A DNA stretch of 64,000 nt from Candidatus Poribacteria bacterium (GCA_965198235.1 OZ240248.1:3616001-3680000); one strand, 5' to 3'. Shown: positions 687-28,923, counted from the stretch's first letter. The notes: generated from the letters alone by a model not told the origin. A program made the numbers and translations.

Positions 687-1544
687 ATGCGCAATACCAA
701 ACTCGAACCCCGCACAAAAATCCTGATGATGCTCATCAGCGGAGGCCTTGTCATTCTGCTGGACAGCCCGACGGCACTGCTCGTCTGTTTTGTTGGGAGC
801 CTCGCGTTGGTCGCACTCTCCGTCCCGACGTGGCGGCAGATCGGGTTGCTCTGCGCTTTCCTCTTCTTTACGACGTGGGGTTTGATTTACAGCCAAGCGA
901 TCTTCTATAACGAATTTCCGCGCACCGTGCTGTTCACACTCGTGCCTGCGGAGCTACCGCTGATTGGGAAGATGACGGGCGGTATCCGTGTCTATCGAGA
1001 AGGGCTGTTCCACGGAATCGTCCAATCCCTCCGTTTCAATACGACACTCGTCATTGGGTGCTTTATCATCTGGACGACGCAACCGCGTGATCTGCTCCTC
1101 GCATTGACGCAATTGCGTGTGCCAGCGACCCTCGCTTTTATGGTGACGACGGCGTTGCATTTCATCCCTGTGATTGCGAATGAGGCGGCGACTGTGTTCC
1201 GTTCGCAGAGGTTAAGGGGCTTCCGTTATCTCCGTCTGAATCTTTTAGCAACCTGCCGTGGCGTTCTCAACAGTTTCCGTCCTATCTTGGCGGGGAACAT
1301 CCGGCACGCGACACACCTCGGCGAATCCGTTGAAAGCCGCGGGTTCTCGCCAGAAATGGCGGCGCGACGCACTTCGCTGCGGGCTTTGAAGATGGGTGCT
1401 TGGGATTTCAGCCTGCTCGCGGTGTTATCTGTCTGTTTGATCGGTGTCGTTGGGTTGAAGCTACTCTATTTCTGCTATGCGAACGGCATCTATTACGCGT
1501 CGTGGTTGAGGCATGCGTATACTTTCACCCGTGAGGTGTTGTAG
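687..1544 (+). CDS. Energy-coupling factor transporter transmembrane component T (EcfT/CbiQ family)
   Basis: KLEPRTK N-terminus, several TM helices, conserved QRLRG and ESRGF motifs. Start moved to ATG 687. Confidence 0.85.
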   Translation: MRNTKLEPRTKILMMLISGGLVILLDSPTALLVCFVGSLALVALSVPTWRQIGLLCAFLFFTTWGLIYSQAIFYNEFPRTVLFTLVPAELPLIGKMTGGIRVYREGLFHGIVQSLRFNTTLVIGCFIIWTTQPRDLLLALTQLRVPATLAFMVTTALHFIPVIANEAATVFRSQRLRGFRYLRLNLLATCRGVLNSFRPILAGNIRHATHLGESVESRGFSPEMAARRTSLRALKMGAWDFSLLAVLSVCLIGVVGLKLLYFCYANGIYYASWLRHAYTFTREVL

Positions 1545-1546
1545 CG

Positions 1547-2068
1547 TTAGCGTCCGACTTCCCACGCCAGATGTTGCAATTCCGGTCCAATCAACTTTTC
1601 CCATGCTAATTGCACTGCCGCAGTCGAACCGGGTGTAGAGATCACCACTTTTCCGCGATAGACACCCGCTGTCGCTCGTGAGAGCATCGCCGCGGCACCG
1701 ACCTGATCGTAGCTGAACATCCGAAAGAGTTCGCCGAATCCCGGTAAGGTCTTTTCCAATGTACGATCGAGAATGTCAAAAGTGGTGTCACGTGGGGCGA
1801 TGCCGGTGCCACCATTGAAGAGGATAACCTGTGCATCGCTTTCCGCCATTTTATCTAATACTGCGGCGACTTGGTCGGGTTCATCTTTTATGATTTGATA
1901 TGCAGCGACGCTGTTTCCCTCTGCCGCGAGTTGTTCGCGTAGAAATGCGGCGTTTTTATCTGTTTCAGGGGTGCGCGTGTCACTCACGGTGACAATCGCG
2001 ACGGCGACGGGTCCCTGTTCGGTTGCCATTTCTCGGTGTTGTTGTGTACTTGTAGAAGTTGTTGACAT
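1547..2068 (-). CDS. moaB: Molybdenum cofactor biosynthesis protein B (MoaB/Mog family)
   Basis: [33 protein letters not shown] and PGS motifs. Confidence 0.92.
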
Positions 2069-19634: not shown

Positions 19635-21134
19635 CTAATCGAGGGCACTGGCAACCAAAACGAGGTCTTGAATGTTGACGATACCGTCGCCGTTGATATC
19701 CGCTGTAGAGCTGCCACGCACACTCAACTGAGAGGCAACCGACACCAAATCCAAGATGTTGACGATGCCGTCGGCGTTGACATCCGATGACTGATGCACA
19801 TGGATACCCGGATGCGCCAACAGACGCTTGACGATGGCGGCATGTCCGTGCTTTTCCGCTACCTGCAGTGCCGTCTGCCCCTTACTGTCTCTTATATTCA
19901 CGTCAATTGCTTTGTGCGTCAAAAGCAATTGCACAACCCCCAAATGTCCGTGTTCGGCGGCACGGTGCAACGGGGCGCGCTTTTCCGCATCAACAGGATT
20001 TACATCGATGCCCTCATGAGCCAGTAACTTTTCTACGCCGAATTCATAGCCTCCAGCTGCAGCCAAATGCAGTGCCGTGTGCCCATCCCTGCCCGCGGCG
20101 TTTACAATGTTTTTGTGATAATACAACAAGTTTAGAAATACTGTTTTATACTCATGGATAACGGTATAGTCGAGGGTGGTGTAGTCATGGCTATCCCGAA
20201 CATTGATGTCTAAATTAGGATCTTGCTGGAAAACTCTCATCGCAAGCCTTTTGTTTCCCTGTTTGAGTTCAAATATAAGGGGGATATCGGAACACAGCCC
20301 CTCGGGTTCTCTTGGAACGTGTAGTCGGGGAAATAACAATCCTCGAGTGGCTGGTTTTCATGGTAGTATTTGTAGAGCCAGACGATTCCGTTGGCATCAT
20401 CTTGACTGATATACTTCAGGTCGTCCCAATCATCCTTAGGGATTATTCCTAATTCAATACTTTCAACAAAAAGACTTGCCATGATGGAAGCGGGTTGAGT
20501 GCCGGCTGTTTTGTCCAAACCACCGGTGCTATCGTATATGCCTTTTTTATTTCCTCTGACATAGGTGTCCGCCAAACCGAAAGTATGTCCCATCTCGTGC
20601 ATGAGATGGTGCATAAAGTGAGGAGTTACCTCTGTATCACTTGTGCGGATAAAGAGTTCAGGAGGGTTGGTCAGTCGTGCTTGCGACGTCTCCGACACCA
20701 CAGTAATGTTTCACTCTCAGATCCGGCAATGTCGAGTCGTAGCTGACTTGGTTGAACCGAAAGTCATTGACGATCGGTTTCTCCGTCTGTAGATCCCGAA
20801 GCGGCTGGAGCCATACCCGTAAAGCTTTTGTAATCGCCTTTTCCATGTCTTCATCGGTTATCTTTTTTTCCTTTCCGATGCAGTCGTCAGCATATCTGTA
20901 GGTGATATGCCAATATTCATCGTGCACCTTTGTGATTAAAAGTTCGTATTCTCCTCCCCAAACATGATCGTAAGTGGCAAAGCCGAGCACTGGCGTGGTG
21001 GTGCTGAGTAGCACGCAGACCGTCAGCGCAAAAAAGGTGTAGGCACGCGCTGTTCTGCAGTGCGGGTTTTTTTGTCTGTGCCGACACTTGTAAGATGGAC
21101 TCGCAAGCCGAGCCGCAATGTTGGCTGTATGCAT
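19635..21134 (-). pseudogene. Secreted Zn-metalloprotease + ankyrin repeats + dockerin-like C-terminus, split over three frames
   Basis: ORFs 20658-21134, 20237-20701 and 19635-20339 align in order with paralogs at 48927 and 52898 (WLQP, HEMGHTFGL.DTY, DDANGIVWLYK, PLIFE.K.G). Ankyrin TALHLAA repeats; DVNADGIVNILDL-type motif twice. Frameshifts near 20690 and 20280. Confidence 0.8.
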
Positions 21135-21592: not shown

Positions 21593-21958
21593 TTATTCAT
21601 TGGATTCTTCAGTTGGGAGTCCTTCGGTTTTCCAACCGCGGAAGCCACCCGTCAGTACTGAGACGTTTTCGTAGCCCATGTTTTTTAAGGTCTGTGCGGA
21701 GAGTGTCGCACGGGTACCACCGCCGCAGTATGTAACGATATGTGTATCTGCGTCAGGGGCGATCTCATCAATATCGAGTTCAAGGTAGCCGCGTGGTAGA
21801 GAAACTGCCTCCGGTAAATGTTCTTTATCATAGTCGGGTTCGTCTCGGACATCTAAGAGGATGATCGGCTCGGTAGCCTCGGTGAGTTCGGCGGGTGAGA
21901 TGTGTCCGACATTCGCTTTTGCTTCTGCAACGAGTTGTTCAAGGGTTTTTAGTGGCAT
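21593..21958 (-). CDS. Rhodanese-like sulfurtransferase
   Basis: LLDVRD, HLPEA, YCGGGTR active-site loop, LTGGFRGW. Confidence 0.9.
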   Translation of the reverse strand: MPLKTLEQLVAEAKANVGHISPAELTEATEPIILLDVRDEPDYDKEHLPEAVSLPRGYLELDIDEIAPDADTHIVTYCGGGTRATLSAQTLKNMGYENVSVLTGGFRGWKTEGLPTEESNE

Positions 21959-24000: not shown

Positions 24001-24621
24001 TTAACTTAATTTCGTCTTGGATGCCGCGCTGGCAGCTTTGAATACAGCGTCAACCGCCCCAAACAGATCCGGCACATCATCTACGCTAAAACTCCTCTTG
24101 TTGTGGACGAATGCATCACCAACAAGGTACCCAAATTCCCACCATTTTCCATCGCTTACAATGCCGTACACAGCGATCTCTGCGGTATCGTTGATTTTTT
24201 GGGCCGCCACCAACTCCGCCAAGCATTGTCCCCATCCTTGATCAAAATCGTTCTTTTTCGCCTCAACCAGTATTATTAACGGTTTTCCGACGGTGCGCAG
24301 GCCAAATTCGGATCTTGTTGCGACAAAGTAATCAGGTGTTCCATTCAGAGTTTCATCATAGACGATAGATTTCTTTACCCAAAGCGCGTAGTTATCGGCG
24401 TACTCTTTGTAGACTTCCCTTAAAATCGGATAAATCACAGTTTCGCACCGTGAGCCTTCAGAAGCATAAACATCAATATGTTGCATGCTGAACTCAAGTT
24501 CTTGCAGAAATTGTTCTGAAGGTCTTAAAGTTTCTTCGTTTCCAAGAAAGTTATCTACCGCGTAGGTAATCTTGAATTTTTCCTGTACCTCAGGTACTGT
24601 TTTGAAATCACTAAATGCCAT
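24001..24621 (-). CDS. Restriction endonuclease-like PD-(D/E)XK fold protein (HsdR_N-like)
   Basis: GTPDY...VEAKK...GQC.AE...YGIVSDG..WEF pattern. Confidence 0.7.
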   Translation of the reverse strand: MAFSDFKTVPEVQEKFKITYAVDNFLGNEETLRPSEQFLQELEFSMQHIDVYASEGSRCETVIYPILREVYKEYADNYALWVKKSIVYDETLNGTPDYFVATRSEFGLRTVGKPLIILVEAKKNDFDQGWGQCLAELVAAQKINDTAEIAVYGIVSDGKWWEFGYLVGDAFVHNKRSFSVDDVPDLFGAVDAVFKAASAASKTKLS

Positions 24622-24651: not shown

Positions 24652-24756
24652 CAGGACTTACGCAAATTGAGTAGAGAAAGGATATGTTTTACTGAACGAC
24701 ATCTGCTTGTTATACGTCTTCTTATAGACAAAATGGGTAGCAACGCGTAATTGTTC
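24652..24756. mobile_element. Degenerate MITE family A copy
   Basis: Intact left end CAGGACTTACGCAAATTGA; right end decayed (CGCGTAATTGTT); no target duplication visible. Confidence 0.5.
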
Positions 24757-24759
24757 TTC

Positions 24760-26619
24760 CTATCTCGTAACGCCCATGGCTTCAAGCTGTGCAATCTGTT
24801 TCATCCACGATTCTCGAATTTCAGGGGAGTAGTCACCGGGAAGTAGGGATTTACGGGTGCAGTTGACGAGGGCTTGCAAGGTTTGATAGTGTCGAATCGG
24901 ACCGATGTTGGGTAGGATTCGGTCTTCTGTGACTGCGATGATTTCATCGAGTGTCAATTTACCTTTCTTGATGAGACTGGCGGCTTCCAAGTCGGAACGT
25001 AGCGATGCGAAACTCGCCGCGGAATAGTCTTCTGTCAGTTTCACAAGTCGTTTGATTGAATCTTCAGGGAGGGGACCGGGAAAGGCTTTGGCAAGAGTCC
25101 AGCGGAGGAACGCCTCGCGATCCTGTCCCTTCGGGTCAAGCACTGGGATCACCATATCCCCGACTCTGCCTTCTCGCCGCAGGTCGGGTGAGAGGTGATA
25201 GATACGGGCAGTCATTAGGAGCCAGGTGATGTTGCCACGGAGTTGCGGGTCCGACATCATCGCCTGTATCTTTCCCGTCAAACGCCGTTCTGTGCTGTGT
25301 GCGTCTGTCCCGACATTGCCGAATTGGGTATCCGCTTCATCAACGAAGATGAGCACCTTCACAAGAGCCATCAGCAACCGTCGGAGTCGTTCAAAGATGA
25401 CATCTGTCTGTCCGAACCACATGCTCCGAATGTTCTTGAGGACGAGCACAGGGATGTCGAGTTCACCGGCGAGTCCCTCGAAAATGAAGGTTTTTCCGCT
25501 ACCAATGGGACCGCAGACGCTCATGCCGGATATCGCATCGGGACCGGTTGAGGTGATACGCGGAATCAATTGAGTCTTCAGAAAATCCACTAATTTCTGG
25601 TTGCCAACGATGTCCTTCAGGTTGTGCTCAGGCTTTTTAAACTCTACGACATCATCGCCTAACTGCCCTTGGATGAATTCGGACACTTTATTGATGACAT
25701 CCTCGGGTTGCAATTTCTCACCAGAGTAACGCGCAGAAAGAAGCATCTGTCGTAGTGCTTGGATGGATAAGCCGGCTGTGAGGATCGCGAGTTGGGCTTG
25801 TGTGCCCCAAAGGTTTAGTGGTTTTTCCACCAGTTTCGGTGTGTTGTTAAACCATGAGATGAAATGCTGGCGTTCTTCCATCCCCGGCGCAGGTATTTCG
25901 ACACCGATTACCTGGGGCAGTCTTGTAATCCGAGAGTTGACGAGGCTCGCTGATTCTGCGATAAAGATGACGGTATCGTTCCCGTCCATGAAGCTGGAAT
26001 CCGAGATCCAATCTTGAACGATGCTGACCCGGTGCCTGTCGGGTAGCGACAAACTCCGAATTTCGCCTTCCGGTAGCAACATGTCCGTTGCTTCAATCAG
26101 GATTATCAATTTTTCCGATAGTAGTTTTTCACCCTGCGTGTTCGTGCTTCGGGAGAGTAGGCAGAACTGCCGTAGGAGTTCAAGTGCCAACGTCGGACTA
26201 CCGATTGCATCGTTCATGTACTGCGTAAAAGAGGCATCTGCAGGTTCATCGGCTTCGGTAGGTGTAGTGCGTTCAACGGCTGCCTGTATTGGACGGGGGA
26301 CACCGACGCTGGCATTTATGTCGAGGTTTGCCTCAGTTGAGCCGCGCCATAGATTGAACGCACGCTTAACTTTTTCGCGTTCAGCCTCTTTTGCAAATCG
26401 GATGGGTCCATTGAGTTCATAAACTATTAAGATGAACCCTGGAATGTCCCAATTGCGAGTCAAGAAGGGGACGAGTGGAATATAATCCGTGTCATCTCCG
26501 TCGCGGACGAAGAAGAGATCGTGGATATTTCCAGATAGGACGAGGCTACGAGACGTTCCCGAATTGATGAGCATTCCGGCTTCTTTCGGGAATGTATAGG
26601 TTGGACTTTTAACAGCTAT
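24760..26619 (-). CDS. AAA+ ATPase, classic clade, with degenerate N-terminal AAA-like module
   Basis: Walker A GPIGSGKT, pore loop SMWFGQ, Walker B IFVDEAD, SRH PDLRREGR. First ATG at 26574; an in-frame ATA at 26619 follows the RBS-like GAAGGGGG. Confidence 0.85.
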   Translation of the reverse strand: MAVKSPTYTFPKEAGMLINSGTSRSLVLSGNIHDLFFVRDGDDTDYIPLVPFLTRNWDIPGFILIVYELNGPIRFAKEAEREKVKRAFNLWRGSTEANLDINASVGVPRPIQAAVERTTPTEADEPADASFTQYMNDAIGSPTLALELLRQFCLLSRSTNTQGEKLLSEKLIILIEATDMLLPEGEIRSLSLPDRHRVSIVQDWISDSSFMDGNDTVIFIAESASLVNSRITRLPQVIGVEIPAPGMEERQHFISWFNNTPKLVEKPLNLWGTQAQLAILTAGLSIQALRQMLLSARYSGEKLQPEDVINKVSEFIQGQLGDDVVEFKKPEHNLKDIVGNQKLVDFLKTQLIPRITSTGPDAISGMSVCGPIGSGKTFIFEGLAGELDIPVLVLKNIRSMWFGQTDVIFERLRRLLMALVKVLIFVDEADTQFGNVGTDAHSTERRLTGKIQAMMSDPQLRGNITWLLMTARIYHLSPDLRREGRVGDMVIPVLDPKGQDREAFLRWTLAKAFPGPLPEDSIKRLVKLTEDYSAASFASLRSDLEAASLIKKGKLTLDEIIAVTEDRILPNIGPIRHYQTLQALVNCTRKSLLPGDYSPEIRESWMKQIAQLEAMGVTR

Positions 26620-26685
26620 GGCTCGTCGCCCCCTTCTGTTTGAGATGACACATCTGCGAGTGAGATGCTGCGTTTTTGTCGCGCG

Positions 26686-27522
26686 TTATACCGGCAATTC
26701 GGAGTCGGAATCTGTGGACTGCTTGGTAGTTTCCGTTTCTGTCTTTGCGTCAGTTTCCTGTGCCCCGAAAATTAAGGAATCAAATTCGTCATTGGTAGTA
26801 GAGGAACGCGCTGCAGTGAGGAATTCTTCTTCTTCGCTTTTTGAATCCGTGCCAGCCAATTCCTGTGCGACTTTTGAACGCCCTTTCGCTTTCTCACGTA
26901 TTTCGCGCATCCGACTCAATTCGGCAGAGGTGCCATCCATGCTGATACCGGAGAGCATATCAGCGATATCCTCTTGTTCTCGTGCAGTAATCAGATCCGC
27001 AACTGCCTCGGATTGTTCGGACTTAATCTTATCTAAGTCTCGATGTAGACTGGTAATCTGAAGTTTGTGGGACTCAATATCCGCTTGCGCCCCTTCAATC
27101 TCGTTTTCGAGTTCCGTAATGCGACCGGTTTTCTCCTGCAAGTTGGAATTGAAGTCTTGATAGGCAGTGACGCATCGCGTATATTCGGCATGCTGCTTGA
27201 TTTCTTCCGGTGCCATCCCCTCGCCTTGTAACCCGGCAGCGGTCTGTTGTGCCTTAGCAATCGCCCCTGCTTTTAGCTCTTCCAACCGCTCTACTTCGTC
27301 AGTAAGGCTTTTGACCCCAGACTTTTTCTGTTCAACGAGTGCGATAAGTTGCCCGATCGCTTGCTTATAGCGTTGAATATTCCCCTTTTTGTCGTGGATG
27401 ATGTCTTCGTAAGCCCCTCTGACGGCTTCGGGGTTTTCCATCATTCTATCCGCGGATTCGTGTGCCTTTCCTGTCAGTGTATACCAGATAGCCTTGAAAA
27501 ATCGTGTGAATCCATTTGCCAT
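26686..27522 (-). CDS. PspA/IM30/Vipp1-family (ESCRT-III-like) coiled-coil protein
   Basis: N-terminal amphipathic helix (FTRFFKAIW), ENPE at the start of the long hairpin, all-helical heptad pattern, acidic tail; RBS CAGGAG. Confidence 0.75.
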   Translation of the reverse strand: MANGFTRFFKAIWYTLTGKAHESADRMMENPEAVRGAYEDIIHDKKGNIQRYKQAIGQLIALVEQKKSGVKSLTDEVERLEELKAGAIAKAQQTAAGLQGEGMAPEEIKQHAEYTRCVTAYQDFNSNLQEKTGRITELENEIEGAQADIESHKLQITSLHRDLDKIKSEQSEAVADLITAREQEDIADMLSGISMDGTSAELSRMREIREKAKGRSKVAQELAGTDSKSEEEEFLTAARSSTTNDEFDSLIFGAQETDAKTETETTKQSTDSDSELPV

Positions 27523-27638
27523 TGTTGTTTCTCCTGTTGAGCGTGCGCATTAAAAGCGCAGTCTTCCTGTATTGATTTGCGAGTTATGTCTGTGCCTTCT
27601 GACGACTTTACACCGCGTCCAGACACCCATATTACGAT

Positions 27639-27667
27639 ATTTTAACATATTTTCTCTAAAACCGCAA
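27639..27667 (-). promoter_or_regulatory. Sigma70-type promoter for the pspA-like/AAA operon
   Basis: TTGCGG-17 nt-TAAAAT with TG extension on the minus strand. Confidence 0.5.
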
Positions 27668-28157
27668 GAAAATTTTATAGGTCAAAGGATCGTTTATGGT
27701 GGATTTTAGAATGAATAGGACGCTACAGGTGAATAGTCACGTCCTTAATCCTACTTATCAGGCGGAATTTGCTGTTTTGCTAATGGTACATATATTGACA
27801 CAAACGACGGCAGGTCCTGAACTGGAGTTTGATATTTTCCTCTGCCTGAATGGGCGCGAGGTTCGTTTTGTGATAGAGTCGGTGTGAGGTGACCTGCTCG
27901 CTTTTATTTGAGATTTCACCTGTTTTTGTGTTACACTTTTAATAGTTTGGCGGATAGGTATATTACCTCGGCGTACACCAGCGTCGAGTCCTATCCAATG
28001 TGAATCTTGATAAGATTCCAATTGAGAATATTGAAAAACTTTTTCGCTATGGACTGTAAGGGGGGAAGAATAGGTATCGAACCTTCTCGACTATAAATGG
28101 AACAGATACTGAACAGTTTTCCTTGGTATTGAATGCTGAAGGAGGGGACAAACTCTA

Positions 28158-28616
28158 ATGCAACACCATCTCGCTATTCTATTACCCGTCTGGATAGAAT
28201 TAATTCTTGACGGGAGTAAAACAATCGGAAGCTGGTTCACCAAAATTCGATGCGCCCCCTACGGCAAGGTCAATAAAGGGGACATCATCTATATGAAAGA
28301 GACTGGCGGACTCGTCAAAGGCATGTTTACGGTTTCTGAAGTGGAGACCTTTGATACCATAACATCGGTCGAGGTGTTTGATATTTATGCACATTGTGGT
28401 CAGCAGATATTTGGCATGGATCATTTTTCTGAGGAATGGGACGAGTTTTATAAATCGGGATCGCTAGCCGAGGCATTGAAGAATTGGGATCAGTCAAATT
28501 ATGCCACACTCATCCATATCGCAAACCCAATTGCTTTCGCCAAACCGTTTCCGTTCCCGAAACGGGACCAAAGGTCATGGGTGCTTTTGGATGAACCCCT
28601 GATGCAAACGCTTTAA
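28158..28616 (+). CDS. ASCH domain-containing protein
   Basis: HLAIL....ELILDGSKT.....PYGKV..GD.IY.K ASCH-like signature; RBS AAGGAGG. Confidence 0.75.
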   Translation: MQHHLAILLPVWIELILDGSKTIGSWFTKIRCAPYGKVNKGDIIYMKETGGLVKGMFTVSEVETFDTITSVEVFDIYAHCGQQIFGMDHFSEEWDEFYKSGSLAEALKNWDQSNYATLIHIANPIAFAKPFPFPKRDQRSWVLLDEPLMQTL

Positions 28617-28923
28617 AACACAGAGCGTCTACGAAAGCCGAAGATTCGTGAGCGTTCTATTTTAATGCTTTGTGAGGTTTGTAACTCCATAAGAAGCAAC
28701 GTACGTAACGTGAGTTTGAAAAAAGTTTAGTCGTTAGAGGATCATAGGTAAATCCGTGCTGCCGTGAAGTGCATCAAACTTCCGCGGACCGGCACATTTG
28801 AAAGACTAACTTAAAACTATTGATTGCGATTTTCTACGCAATGGGAGATGAGCGTTTTATGGAAATTTATTTTGGTGAATACGATAAATACAGTATTGAG
28901 GGAAAAATCATTGATATAAATGA

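Follow-up and report, generated by a model that had tools for sequence, protein, structure and literature searches.

We analyzed a stretch of 64,000 nucleotides, referred to below as the window, from the genome of a Candidatus Poribacteria bacterium (GCA_965198235.1 OZ240248.1:3616001-3680000), and in particular a gene pair in it that encodes a relative of the membrane-remodeling proteins PspA and Vipp1 and an AAA+ ATPase. The organism is a sponge symbiont and the source genome measures 5.17 Mb with a completeness of 96.3%. Two co-oriented open reading frames (ORFs) on the minus strand fill the interval: a PspA-like gene at 26686-27522 (278 amino acids) and an ATPase gene at 24760-26574 (604 amino acids), with a gap of 111 nt between them. 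Features of the pair given below lie on the same strand. An initial annotation of the locus, made from the DNA sequence, had proposed that the two proteins form a bacterial ESCRT-III/Vps4-like module. The analysis described here points to a conserved and co-inherited unit in which the ATPase may take apart a membrane-bound polymer of the PspA-like protein, a reading to which we assign a probability of about 0.5.

The PspA-like protein matched PF04012 over residues 9-239 (profile positions 3-201 of 220) with an E-value of 3.9e-7; its score of 30.3 bits is under the 33.9-bit cut-off. In an alignment of 24 relatives from related loci, down to 28% identity (A4), 13 gave PF04012 at E<=0.01, with a best value of 7.6e-9, and other families recurred in five or fewer. 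When the A4 profile was compared by hhalign with canonical PspAs of that order of bacteria (13 sequences), the probability was 93.1% (E 3.3e-7, 217 columns). The negative control, another coiled-coil protein from the six-gene operons described below, reached 1.8% and 0.1% against PspA profiles. When the A4 profile was run against PDB sequences, Vipp1 and PspA chains were the best matches at a marginal E-value of 0.009, in a co-linear alignment that included the ELAG(T/A)D motif. This motif, common to helix α5 of Vipp1 and PspA, reads ELAGTD in the window protein (26845-26862), is aligned to ELAGAD of Vipp1, and contains the invariant residues E221 and G224. The identity originally suggested for the coiled-coil protein was thus borne out by profile comparison, and its placement as a divergent member of the PspA/IM30 family, within the ESCRT-III superfamily, is supported at the sequence level. 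The host genome holds two canonical PspA genes elsewhere, and the ATPase-linked copy is therefore a specialized paralogue.

In the AlphaFold2 (AF2) model of the PspA-like protein (predicted local distance difference test, pLDDT, 75; above 90 for the hairpin) helices span residues 4-14, 31-100, 112-195, 198-222 and 227-242. A Foldseek search with the model returned Vipp1 as the top match (6zvr, E 1.1e-3, 247 columns) and several further Vipp1 entries. An unbiased VIA structural search was not discriminating: PspA, Vipp1, Snf7 and CHMP (Z 9.8-10.8) were level with coiled-coil proteins unrelated to them, the Z-scores of which ran up to 12.3. Since this search fails to separate PspA/ESCRT-III from other coiled coils, family membership rests on the sequence profiles and not on the fold. 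At the N-terminus, the amphipathic segment recognized earlier is present at residues 2-18 (helix α0, 27469-27519) and is kept across the 24 relatives, with AF2 placing a helix at 4-14 at low pLDDT; by analogy with the PspA/Vipp1 literature it is a putative membrane anchor. The proposed insertion at the hairpin tip was supported as well. Residues 97-114 (27181-27234) include extra residues relative to canonical PspA, since the hhalign comparison with canonical poribacterial PspAs left a gap of about 17 plus 5 columns in the canonical profile at this position, and in the AF2 model a break at 101-111 separates a 70-residue helix (31-100) from an 84-residue helix (112-195).

The C-terminal tail carries a signature of the ATPase-linked form. 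As first described, it is acidic (15 Asp/Glu against 4 Lys/Arg over the last 54 residues) and harbors the motif DEFDSLIF at residues 245-252 (26767-26790), of which F247, D248 and L250 are conserved. Among full-length relatives, a motif of this type was found in all 76 from Poribacteria and in 33 of the 34 from metagenomes. In hhalign it aligned to the C-terminal motif of canonical PspAs, which makes it a feature of the family. Members of the ATPase-linked subfamily continue for some 25 variable acidic residues past EFDxLI and close in (L/I)-P-x, a part that has no counterpart in the aligned canonical PspAs. In the window protein the extreme C-terminus is ELPV (26689-26700), with the nearly invariant P277. 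The chain ends in LP plus zero to two residues in all 76 poribacterial relatives and in 28 of the 34 from metagenomes, and in IPE plus one residue in four more of these 34. This conserved end, carried on a variable acidic linker, is a candidate recognition tag for the ATPase. A complex prediction for the ATPase with residues 225-278 of the PspA-like protein, run without controls, gave ipSAE values of 0.07 and 0.00 and counts neither for nor against binding.

The second gene encodes a classic-clade AAA+ protein of type II, or tandem, architecture with a dead first module, an assignment supported by the ORF, the PF00004 match, the AF2 model, Foldseek and VIA-align. PF00004 matched residues 353-472 (E 4.9e-14); besides AAA the Pfam scan of the protein gave just a weak AAA_22 match, with no MIT domain and no Sigma54_activat (PF00158) match, and the families that we take to be specific for Vps4 were not among the matches. 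Residues 1 to about 575 of the AF2 model (pLDDT 88.4, predicted template modeling score 0.83) were placed by Foldseek and VIA-align onto D1-D2 of p97, VAT, Rix7, NVL, Drg1/AFG2 and Pex1/6, with Z-scores of about 20-21.5 over 445-472 residues at 14-19% identity. D2 alone superposed to an equal degree on FIGNL1, Vps4, spastin, Rpt and FtsH (Z 20-22, root-mean-square deviation about 3 Å). The closest solved proteins by sequence were VAT, p97 and Cdc48 (E 4e-17 to 1e-15), with spastin next at 1e-9. The score against the NCBIfam model cell_div_CdvC was 27.2 bits (E 1.7e-6), far under the cut-off of 650 bits, and that against the CDC48 subfamily model TIGR01243 was 35.6 bits, above the CdvC score and under the cut-off of 802 bits.

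Conserved positions were taken from an alignment of 29 ATPase relatives, down to 25% identity. The first module, D1 (about residues 1-330, 25585-26574), is degenerate: from its first residue the model matches the opening part of D1 in type II AAA proteins, and the P-loop is replaced by SGNIHDLF (26512-26535), with conserved G15, D19 and F21 and no GK[T/S] sequence. A conserved DWxSDxxF lies further on in D1 (25990-26013). The active module D2, together with a conserved C-terminal extension, occupies 24763-25557. It contains a Walker A motif GPIGSGKT (residues 355-362, 25489-25512), the pore loop SMWFG (384-388, 25411-25425), a Walker B motif within VLIFVDEAD (407-415, 25330-25356) and an arginine-finger region DLRREGRVG (464-472, 25159-25185), all of them invariant or nearly so among the 29 relatives. 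The family-specific extension includes the conserved stretch YQTLQALVNCTRKSLLP (residues 563-579, 24838-24888). The earlier reading of an intact nucleotide-binding and unfoldase motif set, preceded by a dead AAA module and lacking MIT, agrees with these results in each point; the model begins with an AAA D1 rather than with a helical MIT bundle.

The annotated start of the ATPase gene is probably not the one used. The conserved N-terminus of the family extends in frame upstream of the ATG, and table-11 start codons lengthen the ORF. An ATA codon at 26617-26619, 45 nt upstream of the annotated ATG and 9 nt after a conserved AAGGGGG, is present in seven of eight aligned poribacterial loci, with ATG in the eighth, and the 15 residues that it adds match the family N-terminus. 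Judged from this alignment, the protein probably has 619 amino acids and its gene spans 24760-26619, which leaves a spacer at 26620-26685 with the Shine-Dalgarno-like AAGGGGG at 26629-26635. The PspA-like gene starts with AGGAGA followed by ATG; a weak ATA start for the enzyme would be in keeping with a low enzyme-to-polymer ratio. A terminator scan gave no terminator-like site on the minus strand between the genes. Predicted RNA folding of the spacer was no better than that of shuffled sequences (z-score 0.59), and no attenuator is therefore claimed. In four of four sponge metatranscriptome runs, all from one study, contigs run across the spacer and cover the two genes, although such libraries can contain DNA. 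The region 27641-28642 had no cover in any of the four runs; contigs from a single study cannot define the transcript start. In further runs (X5-X19) the shares were small (0.07-0.09), and they are not taken as evidence of habitat. The promoter proposed earlier found no support. A weak -35 element TTGCGG with a TG-extended TAAAAT can be read by eye at 27632-27670, but the consensus scan did not return it or any other promoter-like site on the minus strand upstream of the PspA-like gene, and the counts over both strands were at chance level (4 found, 4.5 expected).

Linkage of the two genes was followed in 80 poribacterial loci, the best 80 of 573 locus matches, in which the ATPases are 72-94% identical. 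In 76 of the 80 there is a co-oriented PspA-like gene upstream, 54 times within 400 nt and 22 times at 0.43-2.8 kb. Three of the four misses have less than 2.5 kb of flanking sequence; in the fourth (L054), with 5 kb, a 1392-residue leucine-rich-repeat protein is encoded in place upstream of the ATPase (L054:9-4187, plus strand). Of 61 genomes from the order to which the host belongs, 48 have the ATPase, the identical 48 have the PspA-like gene, and the remaining 13 have neither. In 47 of these 48 genomes both genes lie on one contig in the same orientation, less than 300 nt apart in 36 and 0.36-5.6 kb apart in 11. The 13 genomes without the pair are 92-99% complete and comprise one whole family (f2, nine genomes) and one genus of another family (g6, four genomes), so that few independent events need be assumed. 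Canonical PspA was present in the sampled members of these groups (six of six in f2, two of two in g6); the two genes therefore come and go together, irrespective of ordinary PspA. In four sampled genomes of family f4 (genera g7 and g8) the pair is present and a canonical PF04012 match at E<=1e-10 was not found. The poribacterial pair stands alone in a minimal two-gene form that includes no transporter genes, and a two-gene operon is the best explanation for the arrangement.

Two variations on this layout were seen within the phylum. In some Poribacteria the pair is separated by a gene for a protein of 605 or 624 residues with no Pfam or PADLOC match (L075:3101-4918 and L093:3078-4952, both on the plus strand), which may be a third component that is missing from the lineage of the window. 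Shorter extra copies of the PspA-like gene also occur, in tandem upstream of the full-length gene (L075:401-1150 and 1208-1810, plus strand).

The association extends far beyond Poribacteria, as the check on neighborhood conservation called for in the initial annotation showed. A scan of metagenomes yielded 80 loci whose ATPases are 37-45% identical, and these reduced to 55 clusters at 90% identity. Upstream sequence of at least 4.9 kb was available for 39 loci, and 32 of these have a PspA-like gene; on a non-redundant basis it is present in 20 of 26 distant loci with enough flank, of which seven had it adjacent to the ATPase gene, twelve in a six-gene operon and one in another arrangement. 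The order in the operon is a protein with a transmembrane (TM) segment and a coiled coil, the PspA-like protein, a binding protein (a weak NMT1-like match in two of seven scanned), a BPD_transp_1 permease, an ABC_tran ATPase and the AAA+ protein. Twenty further metagenome loci have the ATP-binding cassette (ABC) genes upstream, and their sequence ends short of the position of the PspA gene. The TM coiled-coil protein, of about 260-300 residues with a hydrophobic N-terminal segment, is encoded directly before the PspA-like gene (for example L140:387-1217, plus strand) and has homologues in 21 operon-type loci. It gave no Pfam match, and hhalign against the PspA profiles was negative. Some metagenome lineages that have no PspA-like gene beside the ATPase relative carry a gene for a DUF3293 protein upstream of the ATPase relative (L138:3857-4684, L151:768-1670 and L159:3478-4380, plus strand).

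These operons bear on what the ATPase acts upon. It could belong to a membrane-maintenance pathway shared with the PspA-like protein and have other proteins as its clients, such as membrane proteins or the linked ABC transporter, with the PspA-like protein serving as stabilizer, scaffold or adaptor. The substrate-binding protein, permease and ABC ATPase that lie between the pair in 12 of the 26 distant loci, after the preceding TM coiled-coil protein, are in line with such a role. So are the structural relatives p97/Cdc48, Pex1/6, Drg1 and Rix7, which extract varied clients, and the existence of members of the ATPase superfamily that have no PspA neighbor. On the other hand, the poribacterial pair occurs alone without transporter genes, the co-occurrence of both genes across the 61 genomes is perfect, and a conserved tail terminus that is specific to the linked PspA subfamily asks for a reader. 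We regard clients other than the PspA-like protein as rather improbable, although this is the strongest of the competing explanations. The same twelve loci, in which three ABC genes are enclosed after a membrane protein, make the earlier description of the pair as a possible self-contained machine doubtful.

Another explanation turns the relation around, with the PspA-like protein regulating the ATPase, as an inhibitor or a membrane-stress sensor, in the way PspA holds PspF, and with stress setting the ATPase free. The precedent is described in a 2025 review, in whose account PspA is a binding partner and inhibitor of the AAA+ activator PspF (PMC7619361), and the tight linkage and co-inheritance of the pair would suit it too. 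Yet the ATPase belongs to the classic clade and carries neither a sigma-54 interaction domain nor a DNA-binding domain, its aromatic pore loops are of the unfoldase type, and the tail terminus, conserved and disordered, has more the look of a tag that marks a substrate or serves recruitment. Regulation of this kind is unlikely. The surroundings of the pair agree with the earlier statement that pspB, pspC, pspF and lia genes are not nearby: PspC was not detected in the host genome (96.3% complete), the search for PspB gave one sub-threshold match far from the pair, and the eight sigma-54 activators (PF00158) and two Toastrack/DUF4097 matches of the genome are all located outside the 64-kb window.

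The neighbors of the pair in the window encode a GFO/IDH/MocA oxidoreductase, a rhodanese, a tetratricopeptide-repeat membrane protein and a PD-DExK nuclease. The nuclease gene (24001-24621, minus strand; PADLOC PD_DExK, E 2e-44) follows the ATPase gene directly, which raises the question whether the pair is part of a mobile or anti-phage defense island and causes or limits membrane damage on infection. RNA-library contigs of all four runs part from the window sequence at 24652/24682, and the junction 24652-24682 looks like a strain-variable insertion point; variation between strains at this position, and phage-rich Atlas clusters among distant look-alikes of both proteins, which are leads only, would also suit a defense island. 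However, the nuclease occurs at one of the 80 poribacterial loci and, taken with the divergence of the RNA contigs, this indicates that the unit ends with the ATPase. PADLOC matches for the pair itself were weak and generic coiled-coil or AAA matches with nothing specific, the oxidoreductase gene is syntenic with the pair in 65 of the 80 loci, inheritance follows host families, and the GC content of 0.48 is unremarkable against 0.41-0.52. A defense function is thus highly improbable. A gene for a single-domain rhodanese (21593-21958, minus strand; PF00581, E 2.9e-21) is located at a distance of 2.8 kb from the ATPase gene. The pspE gene of E. coli also encodes a rhodanese; that the window has one near the pair is probably a coincidence. 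Further away, a single protein combines ankyrin repeats with a dockerin domain (19635-20339, minus strand), and such eukaryote-like repeats fit a sponge symbiont.

The reading that we prefer is that of an ATP-driven disassembly system. A specialized protein of the PspA/ESCRT-III superfamily would use its N-terminal helix to polymerize at the cytoplasmic membrane, on the inner side. A dedicated tandem-AAA unfoldase, hexameric and with a dead D1 and an active p97-D2-like D2, would spend ATP on the extraction, disassembly or recycling of polymer subunits. The flexible acidic tail with its (L/I)-P-x end is the probable point of engagement; the ATPase would thread it through the SMWFG pore loops, so that subunits are pulled out by their free terminus. 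The pair would then work like ESCRT-III/Vps4 while being built independently from a Cdc48/VAT-like type II AAA scaffold. The analysis shows the family memberships, the domain layout, the intact catalytic motifs, the conserved linkage with co-occurrence and the conserved tail motifs; that the PspA-like protein binds the membrane and polymerizes, that the ATPase forms hexamers, and that it recognizes the tail and takes the polymer apart, is inferred. We consider the scheme as a whole to have roughly even odds. All its support comes from context, namely gene order, co-occurrence and motifs.

Several observations weigh against this scheme, beginning with the nature of that evidence. The unbiased structural search placed PspA and ESCRT-III proteins level with unrelated coiled coils. 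The EFDxLI motif is shared with canonical PspAs, which leaves the terminal (L/I)-P-x as the one specific mark of the ATPase-linked form. No substrate-recognition domain of the MIT or VAT-N type was found in the ATPase, the model of which begins with D1. The PspA-like gene was not found within the 5-kb flank of poribacterial locus L054, nor in six of the 26 non-redundant distant loci with enough flank, and because three ABC genes stand between the pair in many lineages, the transporter, or else other membrane proteins, could be what the ATPase serves. Five Paenibacillaceae plasmids carry relatives from the ATPase superfamily with 24-27% identity, which is too distant to inform on the subfamily; the two plasmid neighborhoods that were inspected (H1 and H3) contain no annotated PspA nearby. 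A 635-residue paralogue from the same superfamily is encoded elsewhere in the host genome between two Laminin_G_3 genes (L167:5797-7704, about 4956796-4958703), and no PspA gene is found nearby. Finally, a full-text literature search returned no experimental study of a PspA-linked tandem AAA protein.

If the scheme is correct, PspA polymers would gain the dynamic turnover that the field says bacteria lack, and in the longer operons remodeling would be coupled to an ABC transporter. A wider claim can be made tentatively, and with somewhat less confidence than the scheme itself: several bacterial phyla may own a genuine machine, separate in origin from Vps4, for the ATP-driven disassembly of ESCRT-III; in it a tandem-AAA protein devoid of an N-domain would read a free (L/I)-P-x carboxy-terminus and pull subunits from a membrane-bound polymer. 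Evidence across phyla is uneven, with both genes in Poribacteria, the ATPase only in named relatives from Candidatus Uhrbacteria and Myxococcota, and Atlas matches for both proteins in Verrucomicrobiota and Planctomycetota that are leads only. Disassembly of PspA/Vipp1 polymers is an open question in the field. Since the module is conserved, co-inherited and apparently expressed, this question becomes directly testable with two soluble proteins and a short tail motif; because the poribacterial host is uncultured, relatives from culturable phyla offer the practical system.

Compared with the ESCRT-III/Vps4 and CdvB/CdvC systems, the pair has in common that a polymer protein of the superfamily is encoded directly upstream of a classic-clade AAA+ protein with aromatic pore loops, that a conserved motif lies on a flexible C-terminal tail, where ESCRT-III proteins have their MIM motifs, and that D2 of the window ATPase superposes on Vps4 at Z 20-21. 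The tail motif itself is presumably unlike MIM1 and MIM2, and the partner belongs to the PspA clade instead of the Snf7 clade. Unlike Vps4 and CdvC, the ATPase has no MIT domain, it contains two AAA modules in place of a single cassette, and its score of 27.2 bits does not reach the CdvC model. With a sequence nearer to VAT, p97 and Cdc48 than to CdvC, the ATPase is not a Vps4 orthologue, and the label Vps4-like, as originally applied, fails in the sense of family membership.

The type II unfoldases with a weak or inactive D1, p97/Cdc48/VAT, Pex1-Pex6, Rix7/NVL and Drg1/AFG2, resemble the ATPase in the D1-D2 alignment and the p97-D2-like pore loop MWFG. The window ATPase differs from them in having no N-terminal substrate or adaptor domain, in the loss of the P-loop lysine from D1 and in its family-specific C-terminal extension. 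It also falls outside the Cdc48/p97/VAT subfamily, with no N-terminal double-psi-barrel, a D1 without the P-loop lysine and a TIGR01243 score of 35.6 bits. The PspA-PspF system of Proteobacteria likewise couples a PspA-family protein genetically to an AAA+ protein, but PspF is a sigma-54 enhancer-binding transcription factor from another AAA+ clade and the window ATPase has no such domain. As to Ycf46, Atlas calls the nearest cluster 'ycf46 family', and the COG name given by JGI to five of the relatives listed is 'SpoVK/Ycf46/Vps4 family AAA+-type ATPase'; both are automatic labels, and the ATPase is set beside Ycf46 by label only. Ycf46 of Synechococcus is presented in PMC13683863 as a stress-induced, KaiC-interacting ATPase the mechanism of which is not known. 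Our full-text search returned no paper that names both 'ycf46' and 'Vipp1' and none that names both 'Poribacteria' and 'PspA'.

In the literature on bacterial ESCRT-III homologues, the 2025 review says of a Vps4-like ATPase that it 'appears absent in bacteria' and that regulation of PspA polymers must use other means (PMC7619361). In the available part of Junglas et al. 2024, PspF and chaperones are the sole factors discussed, and that of Popp et al. 2022 does not treat an ATPase of this type. According to the portion of Makarova et al. 2024 (PMC10936438) that deals with their distribution, systems of vps4 and ESCRT-III occur solely in archaea and eukaryotes. The same source describes an archaeal MIT-less relative of Vps4 with a gene of weak PspA similarity upstream, which resembles the window pair in that an MIT-less AAA+ protein is preceded by a PspA-like gene. 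It differs in being archaeal, in its VAT-N-like domain and, in that description, in its placement within the Vps4 tree.

The closest precedent is found in a comparative genomics study by Ravi et al. 2024 (mSystems, PMC11237479). Its account of the relevant neighborhoods describes PspA co-occurring with a protein of two AAA+ domains of which the N-terminal copy is inactive, including operons with ABC transporters, and proposes ATP-dependent remodeling comparable to Snf7/Vps4. The layout, a PspA-clade gene beside a two-AAA+ protein with an inactive first domain, is the same as in the window, although the families of that study (examples are the AEY64321.1 neighborhood and the OGG56892.1 operon) are equated with our pair by description only. 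Details of the operons differ, since the binding protein of Ravi et al. has PBPB and OmpA domains whereas a weak NMT1-like match was found here. We also considered the TM coiled-coil protein of the six-gene operons as the 'Snf7 homologue with a TM segment' of that study; the hhalign comparison with PspA, being negative, gave no confirmation of this. The novelty that the initial annotation had thought in need of checking can accordingly no longer be claimed for the pairing as such, which is already in print and was independently interpreted alike. The description given by Ravi et al. mentions neither Poribacteria nor a minimal two-gene form, and the (L/I)-P-x terminus and the ATA start do not figure in it either. 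The poribacterial pair thus adds to a predicted kind of system: to the published prediction it contributes the (L/I)-P-x terminus, an N-domain-less ATPase, exact co-presence and co-absence of both genes in 61 genomes, the two-gene form, and a likely weak ATA start that possibly sets the stoichiometry of the two proteins.

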